This document shows positions 20,410 through 38,452 of a stretch of 64,000 nt of DNA, one piece after another. Under the pieces are notes generated by a model. That model was not told the origin of the DNA. It saw nothing but the letters and a program-made list of their open reading frames with translations, and made no database searches. The translations under genes were made by a program, and so were the position numbers. The DNA comes from an uncultured Chloroflexia bacterium. Its GTDB lineage: Bacteria > Chloroflexota > Dehalococcoidia > DSTF01 > JALHUB01. Each line of letters opens with the position of its first letter. Positions within the stretch are counted from its first letter, which is position 1. The DNA lies in NCBI GenBank assembly GCA_963703345.1, contig OY969814.1:608001-672000 (forward strand). The letters are read 5' to 3'.

Positions 20410-21054
20410 TTAGCGGTGCTGCGCCAGCTGAGTAGCTTCCTCCTCGCACAGCCGCAGCTCCTCCTCCGGGTCCTCCACGCCGACCTCCGTCGCCGCTCGA
20501 CGCCGCGAGTGGATCCCCGCCGTCACCAGTCGCACCTCGTCGTCGACCAGCGCGCTGCGGTCCTCCGGCAGCACCGACCCCCAGATCACCCGCGCTCGAT
20601 ACGGCGCGTAAGAGACGCCCGTGAACTGCTCCAGCAACCTCAGCACCATCTCGCAGCGCTTGCGATAGGCGTTGCTCCGGATCAGACGCTTTCGCTGCAC
20701 CTTCTTCAGCAGCGGGTCCATCTCCACGTTCAGCGCCACGCCCGATAGCCCCTGACGGTTCTCTCCGAACGCCGTCCGCGGCGACTCGCCCAGGTCGTGC
20801 AGCGTGCGGTAGATCAGGTCGACGTAGTCGACGTGCAGCTTCACGCCGCCGCCCTGCAAGAGGTCCAGCAGGTAGGCCCGCGCCCGCTCCGGCAGCTCCC
20901 ATACCGCGCCCGGCCGCACCGCAATGTCCTGCGACTCGCCCACGTTCTCCAGCACCGCAATCGGATTGCCCGAAAGCTCCAGTATCATCGAGAGCTGCGA
21001 CAGCGCCCGGTTCAGCTCCCGCACCGACTCGCTGATCGCCGGCACGTCGGACAC
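20410..21054 (-). pseudogene. Portal protein, 3' fragment (214 codons) of a split gene
   Basis: VSDVPAISESVRELNRALS...LSGVALNVEM...VIWGSVLPED...HSRRRAATEVGVEDPEEE, SPP1-type portal pattern; begins exactly at the att core. Confidence 0.88.
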
Positions 21055-21064
21055 GCCCCAGAAC
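21055..21064 (+). repeat. att core, left copy (GCCCCAGAAC)
   Basis: Identical to 35314-35323; flanking bases differ; coincides with the portal breakpoint. Confidence 0.92.
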
Positions 21065-21249
21065 GTCTAGGGTCAATCCCCCCGTACCATTTGCCATAGC
21101 TATCGAGGAGGCGCGGTAGGCGAGTAGGCGTCAGGCGTAGCCCCCGCGGGGGAAGGGGCTGAGATGAATGGTGTCCTCCGAGAAGTCCGTACCCGTAGCT
21201 GACACAGCCGCCGCGTTGAATCGTTTATACATGTGAAAGAACAGAGGGT

Positions 21250-21471
21250 GTGATGGCCCACAGTAAGTGCGCCTGCGGCAGTGACTTGGTCGCGGTCTGG
21301 GATCCGGTTGACGAGATCTGGCGGATCAAGTGCGACAGCCCGTGGCATAGCAGTCGAGCGCGGGATTCTCTTGAGTCCTTACTGGTGGGGGAGCGGCCAG
21401 GCACCTCCCCTATAACTCCTTCCGAGTACGCAGAGGCTTTGTGTATGGCAGATGAGGAGGACGGCGAGTAG
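21250..21471 (+). CDS. Small Cys/His protein (zinc-ribbon-like)
   Basis: CACG...C-x4-H in 73 aa; GAGGG RBS. Confidence 0.45.
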   Translation: MMAHSKCACGSDLVAVWDPVDEIWRIKCDSPWHSSRARDSLESLLVGERPGTSPITPSEYAEALCMADEEDGE

Positions 21472-21563
21472 GCCCGAAGCCGCTCGACACGGGGCCGGCC
21501 GCGAGGTCGGCCTTCTTGTTGTGCTCGTATGGCCGATAATGCTGTTAGGAGGGAGACAGAGAG

Positions 21564-21881
21564 ATGACGAACGCGGCCAGGGATGAAAAGGACTTCAGGC
21601 CGCTCTCGGAGGCTGGACAAGTCCGCAACGACATGGTTTCTTGGGTCGTGGACTTGGCGCAGTGGCATAGAAAGTGCCCGGTGGAGATCCGGGGCCGAGA
21701 CCCCCGCTCCCACACCCCCGAGTGGCATGTGATCCAGGCCTCCCGATTGGGGGACTTGGCGGACTTCCTCGAAGCCCTGCCAGACGACGACCCGCTCATC
21801 CAGTCAGAGACACGGCAGGCCATGCGAGAGTGGCACGATCAACGGATCGAGGAGTGGTTCGACTATATGGCCAAGTTTTGA
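21564..21881 (+). CDS. Hypothetical protein
   Basis: 105-aa ORF with strong AGGAGGGAG RBS and a downstream hairpin at about 21936-21960. Confidence 0.6.
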   Translation: MTNAARDEKDFRPLSEAGQVRNDMVSWVVDLAQWHRKCPVEIRGRDPRSHTPEWHVIQASRLGDLADFLEALPDDDPLIQSETRQAMREWHDQRIEEWFDYMAKF

Positions 21882-21965
21882 GCGGGGGAGAGCGGAGACG
21901 GCAGCGATTGAGCAGGCACAGAGACGAATCGCACAGGGCCGGCCCCTGCAGGCCGGCCTTTGCGT

Positions 21966-22139
21966 CTATAGGCCGCTGAGGGAACCGGTCAGAGCCCACG
22001 CGATGATCGCGAGCGCGGGCACGACAACTCCCAGGACGTACACTCCCAGGACTGCCGGCGGCACGAAGATGCACCATATCGCCAGGAACGCTATCACGAG
22101 CACGATGAGGGCTATGATCGACAACGCGGCGGGCTTCAT
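21966..22139 (-). CDS. 57-aa two-helix membrane peptide (absent from the ORF track)
   Basis: Manual translation MKPAALSIIALIVLVIAFLAIWCIFVPPAVLGVYVLGVVVPALAIIAWALTGSLSGL; GGAGG RBS. Confidence 0.6.
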   Translation of the reverse strand: MKPAALSIIALIVLVIAFLAIWCIFVPPAVLGVYVLGVVVPALAIIAWALTGSLSGL

Positions 22140-22461
22140 CCTTCGCCTCCCCGCAACGCAGACTGCTCACATCACGTGCACTGGCCGTCTGCAAGATGGG
22201 TTGTCTGGGGCTATAGGATCTTTCCTCCCCCTTTATTAATCGACGCGTGGCCCCAAAAAGGTTGGCTCTCCCCCATAACTTCCATGACTCGGCCTTTTCC
22301 ACGGATGCTGAAGGCCCGCCTGCCCCCCAATTTTCAAACTTCCTGGCCGGCGGGCCCGTCGCCTGTCCTCCGGCGCGACATAAGGGCGTTACGAACTATT
22401 CTCTGCGTCGTTAATGTATGTGAGAGAGCAATTCAGGTGGGGCTATGCGCCAAGAGTATCT

Positions 22462-22517
22462 GAGAGATCCGGCCCAGGGTCTGCCAAGTCCCCACTTGAG
22501 CCCTGGGCCGATCTCTC
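22462..22517 (+). promoter_or_regulatory. Long hairpin immediately upstream of the rep gene
   Basis: GAGAGATCCGGCCCAGGG pairs with CCCTGGGCCGATCTCTC (one bulge); inner CAAGT/ACTTG stem; ends 9 nt before the ATG. Confidence 0.6.
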
Positions 22518-22526
22518 TTAGGTAGC

Positions 22527-23096
22527 ATGACGAAACAGAAGACACGCGACGACGGCTACAACTTCAGCGGCATGCCGATTGTTGGCGTAGGCTGGCGGGC
22601 TATCCCTAATCACTTTTTCGATATCTACCAGCCGATCATGGACGGGGAGTGCCCCGGCATGTTCTCGGTCTTCCTTCACATCTGGCGGCTGACCGTAGGC
22701 CGAGACCAGAAAGACGTCGCGATGAGTATCCGCTGGCTCGCCCATGCCACGAGCATGAGTAGAACGAGGGCCGACGTCTGCATTAGGTGGCTAGTCGCCT
22801 ATGCGTTCTTGAAGTCCACACCTCAGCCCATCAAGGTCGGCCGAGGCCGGAACCTGCAGGCGACAACGTTCCGCTACCGACCGGTCGGGCAGATACTGGA
22901 CGATATCTACACGTTGCCGGATCCGGATGACCCGCGGCCACGGCCATGGCTGTCGCCGAAGTTGCGGAAGATGCTGGCCGCGGAGGCACAGATCGATGCC
23001 CGTGACGGCGTCCCGCCGGGAGCCACCCCTGGCTGCGGGCGGGACGCCGTCGCCCCTGACGGTGGCTGCGGGCGGGACAATAACGTGACACCATGA
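22527..23096 (+). CDS. Phage-type replication initiator (lambda O-like N-terminal winged HTH)
   Basis: WRAIPNHFFD...VFLHIWRLTVG...MSIRWLAHATSMSRTRADVCIRWLV; iteron-like repeats inside the 3' part. Confidence 0.65.
   Translation: MTKQKTRDDGYNFSGMPIVGVGWRAIPNHFFDIYQPIMDGECPGMFSVFLHIWRLTVGRDQKDVAMSIRWLAHATSMSRTRADVCIRWLVAYAFLKSTPQPIKVGRGRNLQATTFRYRPVGQILDDIYTLPDPDDPRPRPWLSPKLRKMLAAEAQIDARDGVPPGATPGCGRDAVAPDGGCGRDNNVTP
23004..23078 (+). repeat. Iteron-like repeats, candidate replication origin
   Basis: TGGCTGCGGGCGGGAC at 23030-23045 and 23063-23078 (33-bp period); inverted copy at 23004-23025 matches 23030-23051 at 20 of 22 positions. Confidence 0.65.
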
Positions 23097-23097
23097 C

Positions 23098-23469
23098 GTG
23101 GACACCCTTGTTGGACTTCTACAACTCTTCTGGCGAGAGACGATGATGAAGCCTATCCGAGTCAAGCACAGCAGCCTAACAGCTCAGGAATTCAGGGATC
23201 GCAACAACACGGGTGAGTCTCCTGCAGACATCCAAGCTGATACTCCTGCCGACCTATCCGTCAAGGCTCTACCGTCCCGGTGGTATGGCTCCCCGCAGTT
23301 CTACCTATCCCCAGCGGCCCGGCAGGTCTATCTATCCCTGCGTCAGCAGCCTGACGTTCTGCTGGATCCGACCCGCTGGGCCCTATCCCTAGGGCTCACG
23401 GAGAATCAGCTAGCCACCGCGCTCCAGGAACTTGAGAACCATGGTTTTGTGTGCTTGTCCAACGACTAG
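23098..23469 (+). CDS. Winged-HTH protein
   Basis: LSPAARQVYLSL...WALSLGLTENQLATALQELENHGFV; likely start at the internal MMKPIR. Confidence 0.6.
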   Translation: MDTLVGLLQLFWRETMMKPIRVKHSSLTAQEFRDRNNTGESPADIQADTPADLSVKALPSRWYGSPQFYLSPAARQVYLSLRQQPDVLLDPTRWALSLGLTENQLATALQELENHGFVCLSND

Positions 23470-23532
23470 CCCCTACCGCCCCGCCCGCGCCGGCGTCAAC
23501 TTCCGCCGGGGTAGGCCGAATCTAGGGATGAG

Positions 23533-23562
23533 AATCTACACACAACTAGTTGTGTGTAGATT
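23533..23562. repeat. Perfect 30-bp palindrome
   Basis: AATCTACACACAACTAGTTGTGTGTAGATT equals its own reverse complement; no spacer. Confidence 0.95.
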
Positions 23563-23573
23563 AGAGGTGTGAA

Positions 23574-24701
23574 ATGGTCAAACGCTATAAGAGCCGTGTT
23601 ACGATAGAGGGGGGCCGCCTCCAAGGGTTTCACCTTGTGAAGCCGACGAAGCCGCGCGTCATCGCGACCTTGCAGGCGACACAAGATATGCTGGCCCAAT
23701 ATGCGGCCCAAGGTGACACGCCCGTTACCTGCCGCCAGATCTTCTATCGATTAGTCTCGCAGCCCGAACTCGGAATCCCAAAGTCGAAGACAGGCAGTAA
23801 CCGTGTCGGGAATCTACTCATCGAGTGGAGGCACGCCGGCTATGTGCGTTGGGGGGATATCCGAGACGATACTGACATCCAACCTGCCCTCCCGCAGACC
23901 TGGGACGACCCCGAGGAATTCCTTCGCGCCTATCTGCCCGATCCGTATAGGTTCCAGCCCTGCCTGCTAGACACGCAGCCTTGGTATATGGAGGTCTATT
24001 GCGAGGCCGGCGGAATGGCGCACCAGTTGGCGCGGGTTGCCCGGCCGAAGGGGATCCTGACTACGGGCTCCGGTGGCTACAACGCCATCACGGGCAAGTG
24101 GCAACTCGTCAGGCGGCTTCGCCGTGAGACTCGTGGCCGGCCAGCCGTCGTGTTTCACCTAGGAGACGCCGATAGCGACGGCGAGTGTATCTACGACTCT
24201 CTGCGCAAGGATGTGTATCTGATCCGCGCACAGGAGACGATGCGGGATGACCACTGGCGGGCGATTGAGGCTCTGGACTACGGAGAAGCCCATTGTGAAA
24301 AGGCTATGAAGGACGCGGCGACCGACGAATTCCGAGAATGGATCAGGCAATTCTATGACGGCGAAGCCGACGATGACGGCCGTTGTTGGGCTTACGATGT
24401 TGAGTTCGTCCGGGTAGCCGTGACCGACGATCAAATCGAGCACTACCACTTGCCAGAAGAGCCGCGCAAGAAGGGCAAGAAGGAACGGAAAGCGTTGACC
24501 TATCACGCAAAGGAAACGCAACTTGAGGCGATGAATCCGACCGACATCCGCACGGAGTTGGCCGCAGCCATCAACGAGTATTGGGATCCCGACGCCGAAA
24601 AAGCGGCAAAGGCAGATGCTGCCGGGCACCGGGAGGTGATCTCGGATATGCGCGGCGAATTTACGAAAGCGCTTGACCTCCACTTCGGCGACCATAGATA
24701 G
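23574..24701 (+). CDS. TOPRIM-domain protein (Topo VI-A/Spo11-like family of mobile elements)
   Basis: N-terminal TCRQIFYRLVS winged helix with Tyr, MEVYCEAGG (conserved Glu), SGGY, HLGDADSDG (DxD), RVAVTDDQIEHYHLP, QLEAM. Confidence 0.75.
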   Translation: MVKRYKSRVTIEGGRLQGFHLVKPTKPRVIATLQATQDMLAQYAAQGDTPVTCRQIFYRLVSQPELGIPKSKTGSNRVGNLLIEWRHAGYVRWGDIRDDTDIQPALPQTWDDPEEFLRAYLPDPYRFQPCLLDTQPWYMEVYCEAGGMAHQLARVARPKGILTTGSGGYNAITGKWQLVRRLRRETRGRPAVVFHLGDADSDGECIYDSLRKDVYLIRAQETMRDDHWRAIEALDYGEAHCEKAMKDAATDEFREWIRQFYDGEADDDGRCWAYDVEFVRVAVTDDQIEHYHLPEEPRKKGKKERKALTYHAKETQLEAMNPTDIRTELAAAINEYWDPDAEKAAKADAAGHREVISDMRGEFTKALDLHFGDHR

Positions 24702-24782
24702 CCTTCGCCCCCCAGCGCCAACGCTCTAGCAAGCGGAATCCAATTTTGGGATTCCGCTTTGCCTCTCATACAGGTTGACTTC

Positions 24783-24811
24783 TTGAGATTGACGCGCCTG
24801 TGTCGTATAAT
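24783..24811 (+). promoter_or_regulatory. Sigma-70 promoter for the HTH-RRM operon
   Basis: TTGAGA-N17-TATAAT, followed by GGGAGG RBS and ATG at 24836. Confidence 0.65.
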
Positions 24812-24835
24812 GAACTTGACAGGGAGGATCGCCTT

Positions 24836-25072
24836 ATGCCCGCCACCGAATTCAGTGTCGCTTCCGCCTACACCGCGCCTCCAACGCCTTCCCCGGGGGT
24901 CTTGCGCAGGATGTGCCAACTAGCGCGTATCCGCCAGAAGGACATCGCCCAAGAACTCGGCGTGACCGAATCTCGCATCTCGTTGCTCTTCGAGCAGAAG
25001 GCTTGCACCCCGCGAGTGGCCCAAGCCGTAATGAAGGCCATCATCAAATTGCAGTCTGAGAAGAGGGGCTAG
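24836..25072 (+). CDS. XRE/Cro-like HTH regulator
   Basis: LRRMCQLARIRQKDIAQELGVTESRISLLFE. Confidence 0.75.
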   Translation: MPATEFSVASAYTAPPTPSPGVLRRMCQLARIRQKDIAQELGVTESRISLLFEQKACTPRVAQAVMKAIIKLQSEKRG

Positions 25073-25074
25073 CT

Positions 25075-25590
25075 ATGGCTCAAACCGATGCCGCCACCCG
25101 TGCCAAACTTTTGGCTGATCTCCGAAGCGCAAACGATTTTCTCGAATCCTTGGGCCCCTGTTCGCTGACCGAAAAACAGTGCCTCGGCTGGGAGAAGGAG
25201 TTCGCCAGCGTCGTCGAAGGGTGCAAGGAACTCGATCACGATTGGATGGCCAAATTGCCTGCCCGCGGATCCGCCGAATTACTCGCCTTTCAAACGCGTT
25301 GGAGCATCTTGTTTACGCGCTTCAGCCATACTTTCGACGCCATTGAAGCCGCCTGCAAAGGCCCGGCAGACTTTTTTGTAGTCGATTCGAGGCTACTCGG
25401 GGACAGCCTCGACGTAGTGGCAAAGGCACTTTCCGGGCTTTTCGACCTGCCGCTAGCCCTGATCACGACCCGCGTATATGGCGCGGCCCCGGTCGAGAAA
25501 TTCCCCGATATGGCCCCGAGCATCCGCGCCGCCCTTCTAGCCGAAGCCGCCAAGCAACCTGAGAAAAAGCCAGAGGGAGATCAGTCGTAG
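25075..25590 (+). CDS. Hypothetical protein
   Basis: 171-aa ORF tightly packed between the HTH and RRM genes. Confidence 0.6.
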   Translation: MAQTDAATRAKLLADLRSANDFLESLGPCSLTEKQCLGWEKEFASVVEGCKELDHDWMAKLPARGSAELLAFQTRWSILFTRFSHTFDAIEAACKGPADFFVVDSRLLGDSLDVVAKALSGLFDLPLALITTRVYGAAPVEKFPDMAPSIRAALLAEAAKQPEKKPEGDQS

Positions 25591-26250
25591 ATGCTGACCA
25601 GGCTCATCCATTGCAGTCCTGTAGCAGCTCCGGCCGAGGTCGCTCTACGCCAGTATTTGGAAGGCTACGGCCCACTAGACAGGTTCACCTCAGTGGCCTG
25701 GCAAACGCCGCCATTTGTCCTTGCCCAATACTCCTCGTTAGAGGCAGCTAACAAACTACTCGCCGGCCCGCCGCTCGTTATAGACGGAGTCCTCATCCTG
25801 ATGGCTCCCGGCCACGCCCGCAATGAGTGCCGACTGTTTCTGGCGAACATTGAGCGGGAGACAGGCGAACAGGAACTATGGGACATCATCGCCGAACGGT
25901 GCGCCGGCCTACTCGATGTCAAGATACTGTCCGGGAAGGGTGTCGGCTTCGTAAGTTTCGAGACGGCGGGGCAGGCAACTGAAGCCCTACAGACCCTGAA
26001 CGGATTGGCGCATCGTGGCCGACCAATCTCCGCCCGTGAATACAGGGACGATCCACCGCCGGCAAGGGATAGACAACAGGGGGCCAGACCGGATCATCTG
26101 GCCAGCAGGGACAGCGCGCCAGTGAACCGACTCGTCTATTCAACGCCTGCGGTCAGCCCAATGCCATCCCGTATACATACAGCACCAGCGCCCCCGAGTA
26201 ACTACCAGCCACGTAAAGGAAGTCGTCGTCGTAAAGATCGTCGAGGGTAG
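25591..26250 (+). CDS. RNA-recognition-motif (RRM) protein, probably two RRMs plus a basic disordered tail
   Basis: RNP2 LFLANI, RNP1 KGVGFVSF, ALQTLNG...GRPI; degenerate first RRM (YLEGYGPL...FVLAQYSSLEAANKLL...IDG). Confidence 0.8.
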   Translation: MLTRLIHCSPVAAPAEVALRQYLEGYGPLDRFTSVAWQTPPFVLAQYSSLEAANKLLAGPPLVIDGVLILMAPGHARNECRLFLANIERETGEQELWDIIAERCAGLLDVKILSGKGVGFVSFETAGQATEALQTLNGLAHRGRPISAREYRDDPPPARDRQQGARPDHLASRDSAPVNRLVYSTPAVSPMPSRIHTAPAPPSNYQPRKGSRRRKDRRG

Positions 26251-26924
26251 GAGGTCAGTCATAGACCTGCGCCTACACATACACAGGCGCGCACCTTACA
26301 AGACGTATACGTATACAGCACACCATCTGCCCGAGAGGACAAGTAGGCAGTGCGTATTAGTCATCACGATCACTACCTATCCGCCGTCAGAGGACGGATA
26401 GTCGCACCACCATTCGGGCAGTGCGTATAGCGAAACGTGCAGGTTAATATCGTCTACGACGTGCGCCGCCTCGTGCGCCACCTGCCTGCCGAAAGGGTTG
26501 CGCCGCCAATCGCGCCACCTTGAGAGCGGGACACCCTAGACGCCCTCGAACGGTCAGCCATTCGTATACAGAACGCCCCGGCAGAGAACGCGTGGGTTGC
26601 GACGAAGGTGCGCAAAATAGGTAGCGGGAAGCGGGATAGGATCCGGCGGCCCCGGGTAGGCGATCTAGCAGGCAAACAGCTACGAATTCGGGCCCGGGCG
26701 GCAGGCAGGAGGCCCCTAGGTCATCGCTTAAGCGCTTCTTTCGGGAACGATCCTGACAACGCTCCCTATCGCGCACGGCAGTGATAATCAAAAAGTAGAG
26801 GAGGAATCAAAAACGCGGCCAGATGACCCGCGCCGGTATAGGCACAGGCGGCAGAATTAATAGCTATAAGGCCTCCACAGGCCGCCTACTGACCGCCTAC
26901 TGGCCTTGAACAAGGAGACTCAAA

Positions 26925-27602
26925 ATGGCCAAATCGCCCAAGACGAAATCGGAACCCGAGACGGATCCGCTAACCGCGCGCCTACAACAGCAACGCACCT
27001 CGCTAATCGCCCAGATCGACACCTGCGAGAAGGCCATCGAAAGCGCCATTTTGGAGAGCGGCACCCGTGTGCTCGGTGCTCGCGGCAACCCGCGGGTCGA
27101 AGACAGCGCTCTCCAGCCCGTCGTCCTTCTGGAGGCGAAGGCGAAGGTGCTGAAGGCGGCCCTGGTAGAACTTGATCGCAAAATCGCCTGTGCGCCACAA
27201 CGCGCCGCGGAATTCGAAGCGGCCATCGCACCACTCGAGCCGGCAATAGCGAAGCGCGACCGCATCCTTGCCGAGGCCACGAAAATGCTCCGAGACCTGC
27301 ACGCCAAACTGCTCGACCTACGGGCCAGCAACAGCGAGGCCGTGATGCTTCTAGGGGCCAGTTATAAGGCTTGGGGCCGTATCGGAAGACCCCCTGAGTT
27401 GGAGCCCCGGTTCACGCCGGTCGCCTTCCCGGCAGACCTACATACGGCGTTTTTCCGAGACACGCCGTTCATCGGCAGCGTAAGTTTGCGCGGCGACAGT
27501 AGCCAGCCGGTGCTCCGAATGCGCGCATCCGCCTTTGACGGCGACGAAGCCGAGGCTTGGGCTCTAGCAGACCCGGAGACGGGCCGGCCATACGGCCTAT
27601 AG
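26925..27602 (+). CDS. Coiled-coil hypothetical protein
   Basis: 225 aa, heptad-rich, AAGGAG RBS, directly upstream of the protease. Confidence 0.65.
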   Translation: MAKSPKTKSEPETDPLTARLQQQRTSLIAQIDTCEKAIESAILESGTRVLGARGNPRVEDSALQPVVLLEAKAKVLKAALVELDRKIACAPQRAAEFEAAIAPLEPAIAKRDRILAEATKMLRDLHAKLLDLRASNSEAVMLLGASYKAWGRIGRPPELEPRFTPVAFPADLHTAFFRDTPFIGSVSLRGDSSQPVLRMRASAFDGDEAEAWALADPETGRPYGL

Positions 27603-27615
27603 GAGAATAGCTATT

Positions 27616-28329
27616 ATGAAGAACGATCCAGACAGTTTTCTGGCCCAACGCGCCATCATTTCCTTGATCGATCAGGTATACGGTCTCGGCCCCTGGAAGA
27701 CGAAGACGCCCCCGGAGGCAGACATCATAATCGCCCGGTTCAAAGCGGCCACGCCCGACCGGCGCAACCTGATGTGTAAGGCGCTCCGCGGTATGCCCGA
27801 CATACCCCGGTTTGAGATCGGCGGCGTGCTACGGAAGGCCTCGGCAGGGGATAGCCCCGCCCGGCCTATCGTCGAAGCCGTTCTATCGACCTCGCTGGTC
27901 GATCTCGACGGCGACCGTATGTCCGAGAACGCCCTCCGCCAGATGGCCGCGGGCTTCAAGGGCCTCACGATTTTCCTGAACCACAGGTATTCGTGGCCCG
28001 AGGATGTCTTCGGCTCCTGCGGAGGCACCTCGCTAACAAAGAACCAAGCGACGAGTGTTCTTACCGGCACCATCGCGGTCGAGACCGCAAACCCGCGGGC
28101 CCTCCAGTCCTACGCGATGATGAAGAACGGCACGCGCGCCGGCGTATCGGTGGGCGTGATTGTCCTGAGTCATCACCTGGAGAACGCGGCGAAACCGGGT
28201 GGCCCGCAAGTATTCGTCATAGACGATGTTCTCCCGCTGGAGGCGAGCGTCTGCGGCATACCGAGCAACCCGGGTTCGTGGGTCAGTCAGGCAAAATCCG
28301 CGGTCAAGAGCGCATCACAACGGCGCTAG
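27616..28329 (+). CDS. HK97-type prohead protease
   Basis: STSLVDLDGDRM, IFLNH (catalytic His), GVSVG (catalytic Ser), LEASVCGIPSNP. Confidence 0.8.
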   Translation: MKNDPDSFLAQRAIISLIDQVYGLGPWKTKTPPEADIIIARFKAATPDRRNLMCKALRGMPDIPRFEIGGVLRKASAGDSPARPIVEAVLSTSLVDLDGDRMSENALRQMAAGFKGLTIFLNHRYSWPEDVFGSCGGTSLTKNQATSVLTGTIAVETANPRALQSYAMMKNGTRAGVSVGVIVLSHHLENAAKPGGPQVFVIDDVLPLEASVCGIPSNPGSWVSQAKSAVKSASQRR

Positions 28330-28951
28330 CGTAAGCGCCGCTTCGTTCCTCCTCGGGGCCGCTATCGTATCGTCTCCTACAGGCTTGCGGCCCCACAAAA
28401 ACTGAATATGACGCTGCTTTTCCATTAGCAGTAGTCCTTCAAAGGGTGCAAAGGGCAGAATAGTCACTGCTTGAAGGGGCCGGCAACCTGCTCTCCTTTT
28501 TGCCGGCCCCGCGCGCCCGTCCCTAAGCAAGATCTGAAAGCACGCCGCTCCTAGCGTGCTCTGTTGCCCCTGACCCCTGCTGGTGTTCTTGGCATTTGCC
28601 CCAGCAGGGGCCGTTACGTCTGGCGGCAGTAGCACACAGCGCCTCAGCAAACTAGCCCTCCGGTCACTACCACCACCCCCTCGAATCTCTGCGCCCCGTT
28701 GTAGAACAATCGGCCCCACAGCGCCAACGTGGGGCCAATTCGCGCCTATCCCGCCCCTCCCTAGTAGACGGACGCCTTTGCGCCCATCTCGCGTAGATTT
28801 GGCCCTGTAGGGCTCACGTGGCGCTATAGGACGTAACAGAGCTACGCTACGGCCGTTCGGTCATGTAGAGATAGCACGCAGGCGTCAGAATTCCCAACAA
28901 GAGCCGAATGAATGGACTGAAGCCAGATTCAAAGCTAGGAGGACAAGAGAA

Positions 28952-29227
28952 ATGGCATCACTATCGAACCCCTACGCCTCGCTGGCCGCCGCGCAGAAGG
29001 CGCTACGGGAGATCGGAAAGGACGAAGAGGCCCAGCAGATGCAACGCGAGGTCTTTGCCGCGCCCAGCACGCAAGAGATGGAGCAGGTCATCCGCCGCCA
29101 CCTAGAAGCGGCCCAAGCCGAGCAAGATGCGGCCTTCGGGCGACTCGTCGCTGACGTCTTGGGTCACCGGCCTAGTTCGCCGCCTATCTTCCCCCGTGAG
29201 CCTACGCCAATCGATTCACCACGCTAG
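28952..29227 (+). CDS. Small helical hypothetical protein
   Basis: 91-aa ORF with AGGAGG RBS. Confidence 0.6.
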   Translation: MASLSNPYASLAAAQKALREIGKDEEAQQMQREVFAAPSTQEMEQVIRRHLEAAQAEQDAAFGRLVADVLGHRPSSPPIFPREPTPIDSPR

Positions 29228-29306
29228 CCACCAGGAGGCTTCGGCCTCTTGGCCCGCTGACCCGTGGGGGCCGGCGGACGAAGCAGCCGAAGGAGGCAGA
29301 ACGAAA

Positions 29307-29852
29307 ATGGCACGCTACGAAGTAACGAAACACCTGAAGGCGGTCTACCAAGTGGACGCCGAGACCCCAGAAGCGGCGCTGGAAGTGCCGTGGCCGCGCG
29401 AGGATCCGGACGCGGTCAGTATCTTGCGGGAGAGGGCCCGCGACTTGGACAGGAAACCAGCCGCCGGCCCGAAGGTCATCCATGATCGCACGATGCGCGC
29501 TGGCAGAACCTTCGAACGCACCTTCGACGGCACGATCCACCAAGCGGTCGTGCTGCCCGGCGGCCGAATCAAACTCGACGGGCTGGAGGTCTTCAAGAAT
29601 CTGGCCCAGGCGACAGCGGCTATCCGGCCGGGCGTTAGCCTGAACGCATGGGCATGGTGGCGCGAAGTGGAGCCGGCCGCCCCAGCGCCTACGAAACCAT
29701 CGAAGAAGCCGACGAAGGCGGAGCCCGTGACGGCGAAGAAGGTTGACCCAGCCGACCTACGCGCCAGCCTTCCCGCCGAAGATGCGGCGACGCTGGCCAA
29801 GATGGAGAACGGCGAGCCCGAGTCGGCCGAGGAGCAGGAGGGGCAGGCGTAA
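29307..29852 (+). CDS. RAMA/DUF2924-like DNA-binding domain protein
   Basis: GRTFERTFDGTIHQAVVLPGGRIKLDG...FKNLAQATAAI...NAWAWWR; AAGGAGG RBS. Confidence 0.65.
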   Translation: MARYEVTKHLKAVYQVDAETPEAALEVPWPREDPDAVSILRERARDLDRKPAAGPKVIHDRTMRAGRTFERTFDGTIHQAVVLPGGRIKLDGLEVFKNLAQATAAIRPGVSLNAWAWWREVEPAAPAPTKPSKKPTKAEPVTAKKVDPADLRASLPAEDAATLAKMENGEPESAEEQEGQA

Positions 29853-30196
29853 TGGCCGGCGGATACACCTTGAGCACGCAGCACAAGAAGCCTGCGGAGC
29901 GCTGTAAATGCTGCCGGCATCCACACATCGGCTACCACGCCTCCGAGCGTTGCGAGGGGCTCTCGGAAGGGGGATCGCACCTTTGTATGGTAGTGAGCAT
30001 CTCGGAGAAGGGAGTCGCCAGATGCCACGGGCTCAGGACACACAGCTTGAGCTATCGCCTAAGCCGATCTGGGGCGCGTCTCTACGAGGCTATCCCCGCC
30101 CGCAGGCAAGACGACGCTCCCTTATACTGCCCCGAGCACGCGACCCAGTTGGCGATCACCCTGACGATTCAAAGCAGGCAGGAACGGGCCGCCTGA
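29852..30196 (+). CDS. Cys/His-rich hypothetical protein
   Basis: CKCCRHPH, further Cys residues and YCPEH; start overlaps the preceding stop. Confidence 0.55.
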   Translation: MAGGYTLSTQHKKPAERCKCCRHPHIGYHASERCEGLSEGGSHLCMVVSISEKGVARCHGLRTHSLSYRLSRSGARLYEAIPARRQDDAPLYCPEHATQLAITLTIQSRQERAA

Positions 30197-30265
30197 CCGC
30201 CCCGCTGGTGAACCGCCGAGGGCAGGCCGCGAGGCCTGCTTCTCGTCCAGGGTGCGCGCACGCTC

Positions 30266-30811
30266 TTACGTGGACGGATCCACAGCGGCTGCGTAACGCT
30301 CAAGCCGTGTGTGGAGATCGGCAATCTTGTGAAGCCTGTCAGCATCAGTGAGATCCGCGTCGATCACTCCGAGAGCTAGCTCCAAGAGGTCGCGGCGAAT
30401 GCCTTCATCGTCGATTCTGAGGCGGACAACCGCAGCGCGTGCTGCGAGCTTCGGATGGGGTGCGGGAATCTCCTCACCCAGCCGCTTTAGCATTTCGACC
30501 GACATGCCATCCGGCAGACGGTCAATGATCGTTAACGCGCCCTCTCTTTCCGCTTGGTCAACCAGAGCCTTCCATCTGCGGTGAGCATACCCTTCTTCTA
30601 GTTCCGCCAAGACGTCAAACACGGGCTGGAGCTGCACACTCCTCGTTGCCCTGATAGCCTCGTCCTTCCTGCTTTGGCGCTCTGCCTCGAGACGCTGCTG
30701 CTGCATTGCGAGTTCGTCCGCCTGCCGCCAGCGCTGCGCTATCCAAGTAACCGCTAGCGTACCCGCGGCACTGGCTGGGATTAGCAAGAGAGCTTGCCCC
30801 CACGCAATCAT
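30266..30811 (-). CDS. Membrane-anchored hypothetical cargo protein
   Basis: N-terminal TM helix followed by coiled-coil/helical domain. Confidence 0.6.
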   Translation of the reverse strand: MIAWGQALLLIPASAAGTLAVTWIAQRWRQADELAMQQQRLEAERQSRKDEAIRATRSVQLQPVFDVLAELEEGYAHRRWKALVDQAEREGALTIIDRLPDGMSVEMLKRLGEEIPAPHPKLAARAAVVRLRIDDEGIRRDLLELALGVIDADLTDADRLHKIADLHTRLERYAAAVDPST

Positions 30812-30845
30812 CGCGTTTTACTCACACCCCCAACCGTGAGAAACA

Positions 30846-31361
30846 CTAGCCCTCTGTAGGCGGCTCGCGCCAAGGTTCTATCGCCTTCGCTGCAACCGGA
30901 GGGCGCATGGCGTACCAGGACAGAGGCCAAGCCATTATCGCTGTCGACTTCACCCCCTCTGAGTCATCGAGAATGAGGGCAACAAGCGCAAAGGCGATTA
31001 TCACGGTGAGCAGGCCCGGCAGGAATAGCAGGGGGCGGAGGGGCCACACTCGAATCCACAGCCAACTCGTCGCCATGAGTAGACCGGCAAGCGGCATCCA
31101 TAGTAGCTGAGCCAGAATCCCAAAGATGCCCAACGTCAAAACGAGCAAACAACCGGTCGCGGCTTTGGTGAGGTACCCGACCGGAATGAGAACGAAAGTG
31201 AGCACTGAGCAGATGCCTATTGAACAGCGTAGGGCGAAGCGCGTGACGACATCCGCCTCGTCAATGATGGGGTCTAAGCTGGCCAGAATAGTTCCGCTAC
31301 CGCGCACGCGGGTATTCTGCGCTTCCGCCGGAGGCGCGTCAAGGGGCGGGCCCACCTTCAC
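30846..31361 (-). CDS. Multi-pass membrane protein (paralog A); start uncertain
   Basis: Hydrophobic; TSWLWIRVWPLRPLL...AWP. Confidence 0.55.
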   Translation of the reverse strand: MKVGPPLDAPPAEAQNTRVRGSGTILASLDPIIDEADVVTRFALRCSIGICSVLTFVLIPVGYLTKAATGCLLVLTLGIFGILAQLLWMPLAGLLMATSWLWIRVWPLRPLLFLPGLLTVIIAFALVALILDDSEGVKSTAIMAWPLSWYAMRPPVAAKAIEPWREPPTEG

Positions 31362-31437
31362 CTTGACGGAGCCCTCGGCACGACGCACAATGGCCGCATT
31401 CCCCTGCGAATCATGCGGGTGAGGGACGGGAGTATGG

Positions 31438-31929
31438 GTGACGTTAGGCACCGCGCGGGATTGGAGGGAACTAGGGGTGCAGTTGATCAGGATAGGAAAC
31501 TCTATCGTCGAGGAGTATGATCTCACCGGTCTTGCGGCCGTGTCCAGTCGCATTATTATCGGGGGCTTCATGATTGTGATGTGGCCCTTCTTGCTGGTGG
31601 GGATAGTGCTGGGCATCCCTCTCGCGGTCGCCAAGGGTTGCTTGCCATGTCTCTTCGCAATTCCTTTACTGTTGTTCAACGTGGTTCACCTGGTGCTTCT
31701 GGCCCCTCTTTTGGGCACGAGCTATCTATGGGGTAGGGCACCGCTGTTGCGCCCCGTGCTCATGATCGTGTCTATTCCCATCGCTCTGATTGACGCAGCA
31801 TTTCTGCTAACAATGCACGGGATGCTGGAGAACCCAGGAACGATCATCACGGTGCCGCTCTCATGGCCAGCTACGGTCAGAGCTTTCGAAAGAAGACAGA
31901 TCAGAACGAATCCAGGGCTCCCTTTCTGA
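31438..31929 (+). CDS. Multi-pass membrane protein (paralog B)
   Basis: Hydrophobic; TSYLWGRAPLLRPVL...SWP. Confidence 0.55.
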   Translation: MTLGTARDWRELGVQLIRIGNSIVEEYDLTGLAAVSSRIIIGGFMIVMWPFLLVGIVLGIPLAVAKGCLPCLFAIPLLLFNVVHLVLLAPLLGTSYLWGRAPLLRPVLMIVSIPIALIDAAFLLTMHGMLENPGTIITVPLSWPATVRAFERRQIRTNPGLPF

Positions 31930-31976
31930 TGCCGAGGCATTCGATGCCGCGCCGCCGCAAGGTAGGGGCTGACTCG

Positions 31977-32771
31977 TCAGCCGGCTTGTGGGGGCAGTTT
32001 CGGCAAGTGGGGGAGGTCACTCATGGTCACCCACGGCCACTCACGCTTCGGATCGTATGCGTACTGACCCATCCTGAGAATCAGCACGTTGACCGCTGCC
32101 TTGATCCACTCAATTTCCTCTGGGGTGTGATCACGAGGCACGAGTGGCATCTTGCGTGCTGTTTGCTCGTTTCCGACTTCGGTACTAAGGTGGCCCAGCT
32201 TGCTAAGTACGTGCAATGCCACAGAATAGCGATTCGACGCCGCAGACCGGCCCCCTGCTCTTCTTTGGAGAACTGTCAGGCAGAAATAGGCCATGTCGGT
32301 CAGCCGCACCCGGTGATCTAGATAGCTGCGAAACAGAAACCACATGGTCTCGACGTCCGGAGAGATGTCGAAGTCGACAGGCGGATCTGGATACTTCCTG
32401 CTGGTGACGCTGAGTGTGGGGGGCAAGGCAACGGCCACCGCGACGGCCACAGGAACATGCACGATTTGGGGACTTCCCGGCGGTGGCGGGTCGCGATCAA
32501 TAATTTTCGCCGACTCGAACTCAAAGTGGAAGCCAGAGGTGCCCGACCGAAGGGCCGTTCCCATCTCCCACCTGTCCAAATACGTCTTGACGCCTTGTCG
32601 TGCGTCTTCTTCGGACGGGTAATGCGTCTGCATTTCGAAGGTCGCGATGTCGTCGCGCAGGGTCAGGCGGAAGTCATTGGTGTTCCACTGGACTGGCGGT
32701 GGATTGTCAAAAATAATGCCTGCTGCGGCGATGGCTCGATAGCGCAGCAACTGGACGTGTGGATCTCTCAT
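31977..32771 (-). CDS. Hypothetical cargo protein
   Basis: 264-aa ORF from MRDPHV with GGAAGGG RBS; beta-rich N-terminus and helical C-terminus. Confidence 0.65.
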   Translation of the reverse strand: MRDPHVQLLRYRAIAAAGIIFDNPPPVQWNTNDFRLTLRDDIATFEMQTHYPSEEDARQGVKTYLDRWEMGTALRSGTSGFHFEFESAKIIDRDPPPPGSPQIVHVPVAVAVAVALPPTLSVTSRKYPDPPVDFDISPDVETMWFLFRSYLDHRVRLTDMAYFCLTVLQRRAGGRSAASNRYSVALHVLSKLGHLSTEVGNEQTARKMPLVPRDHTPEEIEWIKAAVNVLILRMGQYAYDPKREWPWVTMSDLPHLPKLPPQAG

Positions 32772-32818
32772 CGAATTGCATCCCTTCCGCGCTATTCTGC
32801 GCTTCCGCTCTAGGCGCG

Positions 32819-33451
32819 TCAAGGGGCTGTAACGCTTAGGCCGGCCGAAAGCTCCTTGTCGCCCGCAAGCGCTAGCGCCTTGTGGCGGCGCAGGTGACAG
32901 GGCCGACATCTAAGTTCAAAACCTTCAGGCCAGCAGCCGTTCTCGTCGTGGTAGCGCACCATAGCCCGGTAGAGGCGGGTTCCGACACCATCGCGTAGAG
33001 GCCCAGCAGGATATCGGATGTCGCCCCGACCATAGATGTGATCTAGGTGGTCGCCCCGTGGCCCGCATCCGTTCTGGCCGACCGGAACACCACAGTCGAC
33101 GCATTTGCCCCCGTAGCCGGCGAGCACCTTAGAGCGGACGGCCGCGTTGCGCGCCCGATCCCGCTCCCGCGCGCCCTCCAGATCAGCAGTGCGGTGGGCC
33201 CGGTTCAGTGCGTTCCTATGCGTCGGCTGACATTCTGGGCAGTGTAAGGGAGGCCGGGTCGTCGATATCATACGAGCGCCGCAACCAACGCATTCGGTGA
33301 GTAGGTTGGCCCCGTAGCGCTTGCGCTTCAGTGTGTTGTCTCGCTTCCGCTGACACTCTGGACAGCGCCACCGGACGCCCGTTGCTGGCTGGACGATAGG
33401 CACGCCGCAATCTAGGCAATGAGTAGGGCGGGCGACCTTCTTGTAAGACAT
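32819..33451 (-). CDS. Zinc-finger plus HNH-like endonuclease
   Basis: Four N-terminal CxxC motifs (two zinc fingers), then CVDCG...LDHIYG...GFELRCRPCH. Confidence 0.7.
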   Translation of the reverse strand: MSYKKVARPTHCLDCGVPIVQPATGVRWRCPECQRKRDNTLKRKRYGANLLTECVGCGARMISTTRPPLHCPECQPTHRNALNRAHRTADLEGARERDRARNAAVRSKVLAGYGGKCVDCGVPVGQNGCGPRGDHLDHIYGRGDIRYPAGPLRDGVGTRLYRAMVRYHDENGCWPEGFELRCRPCHLRRHKALALAGDKELSAGLSVTAP

Positions 33452-33644
33452 CTTCTCATAGTGAGTAACGAACGAGTGGCCCCAATGTGTCGAAGAAAAG
33501 GGGCAGATTGCTAGGGGGTAGGTTGCGCCTAGCGATAGACCGAGTAATAAGTGGCACCGACCGGCGTTGTTGTAGGTGATCGCGCATCCGAGACGCCCTT
33601 CAGAGCTGCTAGGTTGTGCCGATGATAGAGGTGAGGGAATCAGG

Positions 33645-35366
33645 ATGAAGAAGGCATTGGGCATCGCGAGGGTTTCGACTGAACGGCAGTCGGCAAATGA
33701 TAGAGTATCGCACGCCGAACAAGCCGCCAAGATTCGCGCGTGGGCAGAGGCCAACGGCTACACTTGCGTCGGCGTGCTAGAAGAGACCGTCAGCCGTAAC
33801 AAGGAACTCGACCCGGACGATCACGATAGCCGTCCGATATTCTGGCAGGCCTGGGATCGCTTGAAGTCCGGCGAGGTCGATGCGCTGGTGTTCTGGGTGC
33901 CCGACCGATTCTGCGCTGGCCAAGGCGGGGCCGACTTCGTCTACTGGCTCGCCCAGAGCCGCAAGTACGGCGACGGGATCCGATTCACGGAGAATGAGCC
34001 GCCACGCGACGGCGCTTACGCGACCATCATGAACGCCGTCGCCGGCTCTCAGGCCCATGCTAGCTGGGATCGGCTGATCGAGATTATGAAGGCCGGGAGG
34101 GAAGGCCACGCCAAGCGCGGCGAGTTCGCCGGCGGCGCATTGCCCTTCTGGATTAAATGGGTAAAGCCGGTCAAGAACGACGATGGCTCGGTGACAAGAG
34201 GCTACTTCGAACTCAAAGCCGAAGAGTCTGCCTTGATGCACCGAATTATCGACCTGTTTGAGGGCGGCCTCGGTAGCGAGAAAATTGCGAACATCCTGAC
34301 CGATGAGCGTGTTCCTACGCCGTCCAGCCGCAGTCCCCAGTGGCGCGAGCACAGCAAGAAGCGCCGGGCGAATGTCTGGGACGGTGCTACCATCCTGTCC
34401 TGCCTCCACAATCGGGCCCTCTGCGGCGAATACATCTTCGGGGGCCGGCCCCGCGGCAAGCTCGACACGCGGGCCCAAGAGCCGGTCATCGTCCCGGTGC
34501 CTCCACTGATCACTAGTGAGCGCTTTGACGCCGTCCAGCAACAAATGATGCGCAATAAGAAGTCTGGAACGGCGCGCCAATCGAGCGGCTGGCCGCTACA
34601 GGGGCTGATACTGAGCGAGGCGTGCGGATACCTCTACTCGGCGCGCACGGATGGCCGCACACAGCGCCGTGTTTACCGCTGTCCCGGCAGACAGGCCAGG
34701 CGGCACCGTGTGGACGGGAATACGTGTCACTGCCCGCCTTTGCCCGCTGACGGGCTTGAGCGGGCGGTTGTAGCGGCCGTGCGCCGGCTACTACAGGATC
34801 CAGACGCACGCCGCAAGGCCGTGGGTGACTACATCGCCAGCCTAGAAAGCCGGAAGGCGGTGCTGGCGGGCCAGTTGGGGCCGCTCGATACTGACCTCGA
34901 CCGGATCCAGACGGCCATCGATGACATGACAGTTGCGGTATCCCTAGGCCGGTTGTCGCGGGATAGGTACGACGCGGAAGTGGCTAAGCTGGAGGCCGAA
35001 CGGATAATGCTGCAGCACCGGCGGGAGAATTTCGGAGCCGTCGAGCGCGAGCTTCGGCAAGTCGAGGAATCGCTGGCCGATATCAACAGCGCGATTGATG
35101 ATGGGCTACTCCACATCAGCGTCGTAGCGCACGGCGGGCACGGGAAGCCTAGCGCCATTGCGTGGCTGGACACCGACTCGGACGATTTCGTGCTGCGGCA
35201 AGAATCCTTTGCCGACCTAGTGCGCCGGCTACGTCTTCGGGTCGTGGTGCGCAGCGATGGCCGCATCGAGATCACCGGGCTACTCCAGCCCCTCGCGGTC
35301 ACGCTTCCTGATGGCCCCAGAACTGCTTCGGCTCCCGCAGGTTCGGATAGACGACGAAGGGGATGA
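33645..35366 (+). CDS. Large serine recombinase (integrase)
   Basis: ARVSTERQS catalytic motif, PDRF, recombinase domain, zinc ribbon (LQGLILSEACG...YRCPG...CHC), coiled coil; ORF reads through the att core. Confidence 0.95.
   Translation: MKKALGIARVSTERQSANDRVSHAEQAAKIRAWAEANGYTCVGVLEETVSRNKELDPDDHDSRPIFWQAWDRLKSGEVDALVFWVPDRFCAGQGGADFVYWLAQSRKYGDGIRFTENEPPRDGAYATIMNAVAGSQAHASWDRLIEIMKAGREGHAKRGEFAGGALPFWIKWVKPVKNDDGSVTRGYFELKAEESALMHRIIDLFEGGLGSEKIANILTDERVPTPSSRSPQWREHSKKRRANVWDGATILSCLHNRALCGEYIFGGRPRGKLDTRAQEPVIVPVPPLITSERFDAVQQQMMRNKKSGTARQSSGWPLQGLILSEACGYLYSARTDGRTQRRVYRCPGRQARRHRVDGNTCHCPPLPADGLERAVVAAVRRLLQDPDARRKAVGDYIASLESRKAVLAGQLGPLDTDLDRIQTAIDDMTVAVSLGRLSRDRYDAEVAKLEAERIMLQHRRENFGAVERELRQVEESLADINSAIDDGLLHISVVAHGGHGKPSAIAWLDTDSDDFVLRQESFADLVRRLRLRVVVRSDGRIEITGLLQPLAVTLPDGPRTASAPAGSDRRRRG
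35314..35323 (+). repeat. att core, right copy (GCCCCAGAAC)
   Basis: Identical to 21055-21064; encodes portal (Q)FWG on the minus strand and recombinase GPRT on the plus strand. Confidence 0.92.
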
Positions 35367-35991
35367 AGCCGTACGGGTTCGCCTTCTGGTCGAGGCGGAT
35401 GTTGTCGACCCACAGCTCGAACTCCTGCTCCGTCCAGACCTCGACGACCTCCGACCCATTCGACCTCGCCTTCGCCGGCGTGACGCCGTACAGCATCTCC
35501 GCCTCTTCCGGCAGCAGCGTGTAGCGACTGGCGACGCGCCACACCCGCGACGTGTCGTCGCCCAGCCACCAGACGAAGATGCCCTGCACGTCCGGCGCCG
35601 ACACGCGCACCCGCCGCTCCGCCGTGTCCCAGGTCACCTTGAAGACGCCGTCGCCGAGGACCGACGCGTCGAGCTCCGTCTCCAGGTCGAGCTGCGCGAG
35701 CTGGTTCGCCTCGTAGACGTCCCGCAGCGCCTTCTCCGCCCGACGCGCGGCGTCCTGCGCCTCCGCCGACTCGTCCAGCGGGTCGACGGCGAAGCTCAGC
35801 CCCGACATCATGTATGACACCGTCTTCTCGATGAGCGCCTTCGCGTAGTTGAAGACGAGCCGCCGCTCACGACGGTTCCGCTGGTTGTCGGGCCACTGCT
35901 CGCCCTGGTAGAAGGCGAGGTTGTCGGCATACGCCCGCAGCCGCGTCTTGTCGAGGCTGGCGAGCTGTTGGGGAAGCGTGAGTCCGGTCAT
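35314..35991 (-). pseudogene. Portal protein, 5' fragment (226 codons) of a split gene
   Basis: LAFYQGEQW, LVFNYAKALIEKTVSYM, ASVLGDGVFKVTWD, NPYGFIPFVVYPN...QFWG, then an element-derived HQEA-stop tail. Confidence 0.88.
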
Positions 35992-36017: not shown

Positions 36018-36320
36018 TTACCCACAACGTCTGAGAATGCGGAAAACCGTCCGCCGTGACAGCGCGAATCGCCGCGCCAGGGCGTCGATGGGCAGGCGCT
36101 CGCAGCGTCGCAGTCGCGCAATCTCCTCGTCGCGGGGCAGCGTGCGCAGGCGTCGCGTGCCGCCCGGCAGGTCGTAGCGACACAGCGGCAGGCGGCAGTT
36201 GAGGCAGGAGGGCGATAGGTCGCAGCCCTCGTCGCGATAGCGCACCTGCTCCGGCAGCGCATCGACGACCGACTGCGCTTCATCGCCAGCTTGGGGCAGG
36301 TCATCCAGTTGCGCCGTCAT
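36018..36320 (-). CDS. Cys-cluster plus HTH DNA-binding protein
   Basis: YRDEGCDLSPSCLNCRLPLCRYD followed by IDALARRFALSRRTVFRIL; lies between terminase and portal. Confidence 0.7.
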   Translation of the reverse strand: MTAQLDDLPQAGDEAQSVVDALPEQVRYRDEGCDLSPSCLNCRLPLCRYDLPGGTRRLRTLPRDEEIARLRRCERLPIDALARRFALSRRTVFRILRRCG

Positions 36321-37737: not shown

Positions 37738-37955
37738 CAGCGCACCAGCCCCAGCACGAACTGCGTGATTACGACGCCGATGATCAGGAAGATGAGGCCG
37801 TTCACGCGCCCCTTCACCTCGTCGAGCTGCTTCTCCAGGTTGCGCAGCCGCTCCTCGACGACGGCGTGGAAGGCGGCGCTTGGAGACGCGCCCCGACGCA
37901 CGGTCCGTCGCTGCGGCCGCGCCTGCCCGCTAGTCTTCGCTTCCGGCGATGTCAC
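37737..37955 (-). CDS. Small coiled-coil protein with C-terminal TM helix
   Basis: EERLRNLEKQLDEVKGRVNG followed by LIFLIIGVVITQFVLGLV; overlaps both neighbours. Confidence 0.6.
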   Translation of the reverse strand: MTSPEAKTSGQARPQRRTVRRGASPSAAFHAVVEERLRNLEKQLDEVKGRVNGLIFLIIGVVITQFVLGLVR

Positions 37956-38298: not shown

Positions 38299-38440
38299 GC
38301 GGCAAGCCTTCCAGCACTTCCAGCAGGCCGGTCAGCGCGTCCGGCGGCAGCTTCGCCGTCACCTCGGCCAGGCCAAGCAGCAGGTACAGCGCCACGACGT
38401 TCCACTCCCGCCTCTCAACCGCAATCGCCAATCGAGACAT
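38285..38440 (-). CDS. 51-aa hypothetical protein (absent from the ORF track)
   Basis: Manual translation MSRLAIAVERREWNVVALYLLLGLAEVTAKLPPDALTGLLEVLEGLPRDRR; GGAG RBS; fills the operon gap. Confidence 0.6.
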   Translation of the reverse strand: MSRLAIAVERREWNVVALYLLLGLAEVTAKLPPDALTGLLEVLEGLPRDRR

Positions 38441-38452
38441 ATCTCCGCTCCT

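Follow-up and report, generated by a model that had tools for sequence, protein, structure and literature searches.

A serine-recombinase element splits the portal gene of a gene transfer agent-like cluster in an uncultured Chloroflexia bacterium

The split portal gene

We analyzed a 64,000-nucleotide stretch (hereafter, the window) of the genome of an uncultured Chloroflexia bacterium (G000), which is a single 2.28-Mb contig with a completeness of 95.85%, and found a phage-type portal gene interrupted by a 14,259-bp element that carries a large serine recombinase (LSR). The 5′ half of the portal gene (codons 1–226; 35314..35991, minus strand; PF05133, E 1.7e-10; phrog_64) and its 3′ half (214 codons; 20410..21054, minus strand; PF05133, E 3.6e-7; phrog_64, E 4.8e-15) matched complementary positions of the SPP1-type portal profile PF05133 (10–197 and 280–415) and covered positions 88–283 and 292–499 of phrog_64. 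In the integrated state, the 5′ half is followed by four extra codons and then a stop at 35299. A 10-bp core, GCCCCAGAAC, was present exactly twice in the window as an exact repeat with a spacing of 14,259 bp. The right copy (35314..35323) marks the junction between the portal 5′ half and the element, the left copy (21055..21064) marks the junction between the element and the 3′ half, and the identity of the two copies stopped at 10 bp on both sides. The 10-mer itself is common, with 12 copies across the genome; the weight of evidence therefore rests on the outcome of removal.

As the original prediction had stated, in silico deletion of the 14,259 bp with one core kept gave an unbroken frame of 1,323 nt, encoding 440 amino acids and a stop codon without internal stops. 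The comparison included same-genus genomes (G002, G003, G005, G006, and G008), loci of relatives (L-numbers), and additions from IMG/VR and metagenome records (G436, G437, L099, and G470), while the unpublished genome G045 was counted in tallies only. Residues 1–435 of the rejoined portal showed 89.9% and 91.7% identity to the intact portals of G008 and G002, respectively, with no misalignment at the junction. The junction motif was found in 27 of the 29 relative loci scanned, 26 of which continue as portal and one of which (G003) is split as in the window, and the 24 residues around the rejoined junction were identical in four intact relatives (L002, L003, L006, and L024). These results confirmed that the portal gene is split and that the split is exactly reversible on paper.

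Next, the junctions were compared with read-derived evidence, which consists of low-depth contigs (depth 2–5) of run X1; runs X2 and X3 cover next to none of the stretch. X1 is possibly the source data of the G000 assembly. The left junction of the integrated form was spanned without differences by an X1 contig (20924–21273, depth 4.2), which argues against misassembly. Another X1 contig (depth 3.67) joins 21054 to 35314 and was considered as a product of excision. However, the ~160 bp next to the joint contain 12 substitutions; judged by these, the contig is an empty site of a ~92%-identical relative and not excision in the same strain. Candidate excision scars at codon ~226 in three other genomes (G026, G445, and G438) were also rejected, as they were one-base homopolymer gains in or beside a TGGGG or TTT run and are likely sequencing errors.

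The inserted element, its integrase, and its relatives

The element occupies 21065..35323 (plus strand; one core included), with most genes antisense to the host operon. Its LSR (573 amino acids, uninterrupted; 33645..35366, plus strand) contains the catalytic, recombinase, and zinc-ribbon domains (PF00239, PF07508, and PF13408), in agreement with the proposal that this is a serine-recombinase insertion, reversible in principle. The LSR frame runs across the right core, such that the last ~14 residues of the integrated form are encoded by antisense DNA of the portal gene. In silico circles predicted a different C-terminal tail, which would exist in the excised circle only (21065..21119, plus strand) and contains a P-F-[AS]-I motif. 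The integrase gene crosses the attachment site in all three fully mapped members of the family, namely those of G000 (14,259 bp), G436 (15,120 bp), and G008 (14,450 bp), and each predicted circle gives a different tail in which the motif, in frame each time, is 26, 32, and 17 nt away from the crossover. In the six-frame translations of two elements (58,690 residues), PFAI was present three times. The G008 boundary was located through a search for this motif and is not fully independent, though removal at this boundary also restored the host frame. The clade protein P0002 has the same read-through tail. The attachment site of the circular element (attP) would lie within the 3′ end of the element's own integrase gene.

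The LSR clade comprises 12 proteins with 48–100% identity. When genome contigs were searched, the G003 contig was the sole match, and a class-wide LSR profile found at least two of 401 genomes at E<=1e-60 among the matches listed, with three candidates scored per genome. The same portal codon, 226, is occupied in G000, G003, L099, G436, and G437, insertions in other genomes at the codons of the QFWG motif being among the things that the original prediction had proposed to look for. The element is antisense to the portal in G000, G003, and L099 and co-oriented with it in G436 and G437. Removal of the oppositely oriented G436 element, which has an 11-bp core, gave a portal of 470 amino acids, and the G000 and G436 cores have seven bases in common. 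Read in the direction of the Trp codon's TG, half-sites of four elements aligned, and inverted-repeat matches were 7/8 in G436 and 8/8 in G437. From the overlap with the G436 core and the half-site alignment, we place the crossover, provisionally, at the TG of the Trp-226 codon. A symmetry scan of the G000 attP alone singled out no center; the center comes from comparing G436, G437, and L099. A flipped central dinucleotide is established behavior of serine integrases and would account for both orientations at codon 226.

The right junction of G003 is identical to that of G000 over 56 bp and is mirrored in L099. The same-site copy in G003 has an LSR without its first ~157 residues, thereby lacking the catalytic domain, and this 95% complete genome yielded no capsid gene and no 3′ portal half. 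The truncated LSR (L035, 8244–9620) begins like the N-terminus of the RAMA-like gene of the element, which suggests that an internal deletion fused the RAMA-like start to the LSR; downstream of it is a phosphate-transport operon.

The other element genes described here are all on the plus strand. A 189-amino acid open reading frame (ORF) at 22527..23096 has no family match and, by position and appearance, might be a replication initiator. Further along is a topoisomerase-like protein (375 amino acids; 23574..24701; phrog_6247, E 4e-24), and a perfect 30-bp palindrome just 5′ of the latter gene (23533–23562) is a possible operator or origin. Genes for a helix-turn-helix (HTH) protein (90 amino acids), an unknown protein of 171 amino acids, and an RRM-domain protein (219 amino acids) lie at 24800..26250 behind a strong σ70-like promoter (24783–24811), and all three have homologues in the G008 element. 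A coiled-coil-like protein of 225 amino acids (26925..27602) has conserved counterparts in the elements of G436 and G008; an atlas lead to a Psu-like function, scored at 0.89, was unsupported by Pfam scans of 17 homologues or by a PDB profile search. Directly downstream is a prohead-protease-like protein (27616..28329; PF04586, E 8.5e-5) with no capsid gene after it. Its PF04586 match was above the cut-off and weaker than that of most family members, and its homologues in G436 and G008 show 41% and 43% identity. For a RAMA-like domain protein (29307..29852; PF18755, E 7.8e-4, under the cut-off), homologues were identified in both G436 and L100. Two cargo genes are enclosed by a 35-bp direct repeat (91%; 31313–31347 and 32793–32827), which contains promoter-like hexamers and is a possible cassette border.

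In the G000 element, we found neither a capsid gene nor one for a portal or terminase. Apart from the LSR, 18 element ORFs were scanned, several of which have no family, and none of the 18 had a Pfam or PHROGs match to AlpA or primase; 10 element ORFs tried with PADLOC gave no strong match to defense genes. The three mapped members have in common the 225-amino acid protein and the protease-like gene, and those of G000 and G008 also the HTH, 171-amino acid, and RRM genes. The G436 element additionally carries a large terminase (phrog_9, E 1e-37) and a tyrosine recombinase, and that of G008 a minor head protein of the Mu-F type; the ORFs that were read or scanned included a capsid gene in none of the three elements. 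In the cargo slot of the G436 element, a TIR-like gene (L103, 7473–8318; PADLOC PDC-S35, E 3e-68) is a candidate defense gene.

The host cluster and the portal as a repeated target

The portal gene belongs to a conserved phage-head cluster. A portal match was found in 54 of 61 relatives, 81 of 93 genomes of the order, and 241 of 401 genomes of the class, mostly once per genome. All cluster genes in the window are on the minus strand. In the portal operon, the large terminase gene (36317..37737; terminase matches of its last piece) is separated from the portal by an HTH regulator (36018..36320; phrog_836, E 4.6e-5) that is kept in relatives. Three conserved small genes head the operon (37737..38770), one of which, from its position, may encode a small terminase, with no family match. 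After 5.9 kb of opposite-strand genes, the remaining cluster (8820..14548) contains a scaffold-like gene, the major capsid gene (13026–13913), two genes of unknown function, an SU10-type adaptor gene (11373–12008), a gene for a 660-amino acid tail-like protein, and two small genes. The tail-like protein was placed in Chloroflexota by the atlas, and gene content suggests Dehalococcoidia as the class of the host. The cluster is flanked by HIT/HD genes and dnaN, which are common to G000, G002, and G008. Searches with Pfam and PHROGs found no integrase or replication genes in the cluster, and the only PF05065 capsid match of G000 is the cluster's own. Pairwise dN/dS (ratio of nonsynonymous to synonymous substitution rates) of all cluster genes tested, terminase pieces included, was 0.10–0.30 against G002 and G008, consistent with purifying selection and without a sign of long relaxation.

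A palindromic AGAAC-N4-GTTCT-type box lies upstream of the terminase-portal operon (38867..38886) and is repeated at 14570–14589 and 12872–12891. In a whole-genome scan with a motif built from nine sites in relatives, these three cluster promoters ranked first to third (26.7–28.8 bits), and the box is conserved in five other genomes or records. Weaker matches precede lexA (11.1 bits) and an ORF that looks DinB-like by eye; the scan did not locate recA. The box resembles the Gram-positive-type LexA box, and the particle genes may therefore be under SOS (DNA-damage) control. The capsid genes appear to have their own promoters, so that the insertion should remove the portal alone. With its conservation, purifying selection, and shared promoter box, the cluster bears out the proposed resemblance to a gene transfer agent (GTA), and GTA-like is a fair label for its anatomy.

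Cluster parts were not found in three of the eight other same-genus genomes (G003, G005, and G006; 90–95% complete), G006 having no more than a portal remnant and G005 no match. In a 1.5-Mb genome (L098, G188:C1:330001-350000), portal residues 1–277 are fused to a tail-like gene from residue 246 (7471–9530), the terminase genes are inverted nearby, and the capsid block is apparently deleted at the locus. Just past the portal 3′ end, the window contains a type II restriction-modification pair of the XamI family (17809–20393), which was not seen at this place in G002 and G008; other genomes have other extra genes here.

The terminase gene was then compared with those of three same-genus genomes, which showed that G000 has a deletion of 2 nt at ~37238 and an insertion of 1 nt at ~36733. 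The background against G008 was eight frameshifts in 187 orthologues (71,030 amino acids, some of them shadow frames), including two single-base insertions in the carB-like gene. At this rate, the probability of two frameshifts is ~0.0014 for the terminase gene and 0.05 for anywhere in the cluster. The deletion site was matched without a gap by a contig (37025–37522, depth 5.4) of X1, which may be the source data, and in the control the two carB-like insertions were not bridged among the matches listed. We regard it as more likely than not that at least one of the terminase frameshifts is real. In that case, filled particles would not result from excision by itself, unless a separate terminase-like gene (G000:C1:2264442-2266418) helps. 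This gene, which encodes 658 amino acids, lies in a second island (G000:C1:2261317-2266418) that also contains a tyrosine recombinase and a ParB-like ORF, with no capsid.

The portal gene is also interrupted elsewhere. Among the 81 portal-bearing genomes of the order, it is split by an element in three (G000, G003, and G021), and re-searching of the 54 genomes with multiple or partial portal matches at the class level added G229 and G330. Four portal sites are used, at codons ~212–214, ~223, 226, and ~252. Codons ~212–214 are interrupted in G021 by a 14,476-bp element (LSR 24% identical) and in G229 by a 30,647-bp full prophage (LSR 21%) that brings terminase, portal, capsid, and tape measure genes of its own. 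Codon ~223 is interrupted in G330 by 31,336 bp with an integrase remnant and a cargo island. Contigs of G282, G072, and G459 end no more than two bases from the latter site, which is a hint only of mixed alleles. At codon ~252, G470 carries a ~37.7-kb LSR element with ORFs that look phage-like by eye. The capsid gene of G021 is likewise split by a 10,287-bp LSR element (L125, 5495–15782; G021:C4), whose removal restores 295 amino acids. When 419 windows of 45 nt were ranked by conservation across 26 intact portals, first place went to the one from codon 213 to codon 227, a stretch that includes the target codon 226, whereas the window centered on Trp-226 ranked 122nd. The portal gene is an integration hot spot that is split only exceptionally. 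Directly after the portal 3′ half, a gene of the radical-SAM (SPL-like) type and a partner gene were observed in G021 (L032, 4518–6231) and G436 (L103, 12425–14189), in opposite orientations.

Interpretation and comparison with known systems

On balance, we lean towards a selfish, capsid-less element of the satellite type for which the portal gene is the landing site, and away from a host-run switch. The narrow size range of the mapped members, their head-related genes without a capsid gene, and the single capsid match in G000 favor a satellite, as far as gene content can tell. The integrase would recombine attP of the circular element, in the 3′ end of its own gene, with the Trp-226 codon. 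Integration would swap the integrase tail and silence the portal, while the capsid and tail genes would keep their own promoters. The integrase and a putative directionality factor would then excise the element and rebuild the portal, and the freed circle would replicate. Tentatively, the circle could also be packaged in heads of the cluster, helped by the protease-like and other head-related proteins. A more far-reaching form of this proposal is that the family parasitizes a GTA-like particle system from inside its portal gene, that excision both frees the satellite and reactivates packaging so that particles carry the satellite, and that the circle-only integrase tail is a built-in directionality control; we offer it as a possibility that, as a whole, is less likely than not. 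The original prediction held that no DNA-filled particle could form until the element excises and that this is a recombination switch on a GTA-like system. The first part stands as logic, since the portal is off while the element is integrated, whereas a switch that serves the host is not supported, and the gating would serve the element.

Several observations weigh against the satellite reading. In G229, the portal gene is likewise used by a self-sufficient prophage that has head genes of its own, and the element of G470 is similar by eye. Moreover, the family member of G008 sits in an M23 peptidase gene, which rejoins to 524 amino acids on removal, while the G008 portal is intact, and clade LSRs in L100 and L101 adjoin a non-portal gene that is methyltransferase-like by eye. 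Targeting of the portal therefore does not require dependence on the cluster. (The L100/L101 insertion site itself resembles the portal core.) As the elements lie in either orientation to the portal, coupling by read-through cannot be a general feature, and the cluster promoter box is absent from the element (best 8.6 bits against 26.7–28.8 bits). A directionality factor, a primase, and a packaging site were not identified in the element, and the G000 element has no terminase of its own beside a host terminase with two frameshifts, which are possibly errors. In addition, the search for attB and attP in reads, suggested along with the prediction, yielded no circle joint and no same-strain empty site among the X1 contigs (depth 2–5).

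The same observations bear on the other explanations. The portal could be a plain integration hot spot and the insertion a knockout, with a conserved, single-copy, dispensable gene as the target of many integrases, an element moved by other phages, and a cluster that is decaying in this lineage. The four sites, the several unrelated LSRs with very different cargo, the family members at non-cluster sites, the cluster parts missing from G003, G005, and G006, and the two terminase frameshifts, improbable at the background rate and the first of them matched by an X1 contig, all agree with this. However, the dN/dS of 0.10–0.30 gives no sign of long relaxation, assembly indel errors do exist, as the two insertions in the carB-like gene illustrate, and the narrow size range together with head-related genes but no capsid gene points to a packaging relationship; we consider this explanation somewhat unlikely. 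It is far less probable that the element is a domesticated switch, comparable to skin or SPβ, whose excision the host times to obtain DNA-filled particles. Although the precise restoration, the intact LSR, a cluster with a shared regulatory box, and the spsM precedent (PMC4191935) would suit such a switch, the split is rare (3/81) and uses four sites and unrelated LSRs, and a full prophage is found as cargo. Furthermore, the element has not been reduced to a recombinase cassette and contains no box, a family member lies in the M23 peptidase gene, the G003 copy has lost the catalytic domain, and the X1 contigs contain no same-strain excision. By far most relatives have a portal that is not split and already a transcriptional box, so that no switch is needed.

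Mobile elements are known to interrupt competence genes, and the element might by analogy gain from actively disarming the particle system, thereby avoiding lysis of the host or curing by incoming DNA. Portal and capsid genes have been struck repeatedly and independently, twice in G021 and once by a self-sufficient prophage, which matches this idea, but sequence conservation alone can explain the targeting, and we judge it about as improbable as the host-timed switch, if not slightly more so. Misassembly is the least probable explanation and can practically be set aside: the single-contig assembly has some indel errors, but the left junction is bridged by an identical contig, and the right junction is identical over 56 bp in G003 and mirrored in L099.

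If it is true that the satellite-type element rides in particles of the cluster, satellite biology would extend from phages to host-domesticated GTAs, with a host gene cluster, and not a phage, as the helper. The attB and attP sites would then offer a PCR-level handle on particle production by a widespread, uncharacterized cluster of Chloroflexota. Even on the duller reading, a hot spot for unrelated LSRs with exact attachment sites in both orientations and an integrase gene that contains attP are useful for integrase biology. Our literature search found no description of the cluster, of an element in a GTA portal, or of an attP within an LSR gene; it did not cover the candidate lists of PMC7192596 on regulated gene integrity, which may bear on novelty. 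The words phage, capsid, virus, and GTA occur nowhere in the text of PMC10284905, and the passages of PMC13626063 that were examined contain nothing on the system.

The anatomy of the cluster is similar to those of RcGTA and the Caulobacter GTA, in that it has head, packaging, and tail-like genes but none for replication or integration, is conserved in many genomes under purifying selection, and shares one promoter box among its genes. It differs from them in its SPP1/P22-like portal and SU10-like adaptor and capsid matches, and its particles are putative. Among elements that split host genes, skin interrupts sigK, and an A118-like prophage is inserted in comK. Skin and SPβ, which splits spsM and uses SprA and SprB, resemble the present case in that a site-specific recombinase would rebuild a host gene by excising precisely; according to PMC4191935, excision of SPβ has been demonstrated, is developmentally timed, and has a known accessory factor. 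In contrast, the target here is a phage-derived gene used by many unrelated elements, and no factor was identified. The Vibrio cholerae phage-inducible chromosomal island (PICI)-like element (PLE; PMC6002521) is an LSR satellite that takes its directionality factor from the helper phage ICP1, which offers a model of how the present element could sense induction of the cluster. However, PLE is a parasite of a lytic phage, and the abstract of PMC6002521 places no PLE inside a helper gene.

The closest likeness is to the helper-embedded PICIs (HE-PICIs). The original prediction did not know this kind of system to be described; satellites that split late genes, the portal included, are in fact published (PMC10111431), and we found none for a GTA portal. 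In PMC10111431, HE-PICIs occupy nine late genes at 14 sites, some of which are portal sites, and regulation by interruption serves the satellite, with off-target insertions too; the word serine is nowhere in the text. Similarly, the present element lies inside a phage late gene without a replacement sequence, its excision would restore the gene, its size of 14,259 bp falls within the 10–20 kb of HE-PICIs, and late genes, portal and capsid included, are hit repeatedly in both cases, here also by unrelated LSR elements. In contrast, the integrase here is an LSR and not a member of the PICI/11capE clade, which is of the tyrosine type. The element does not run in the direction of the late gene in G000, G003, and L099, although it does in G436 and G437, and it has no alpA or primase match. 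Moreover, the gene that is split is part of a cluster that the host keeps and that has no integrase or replication genes, and not of an inducible, replicating prophage, and the host is a member of Chloroflexota rather than of Enterobacteriaceae. The best reading, by analogy, is that the element is a serine-integrase counterpart of the helper-embedded PICIs, residing in a domesticated GTA-like cluster.

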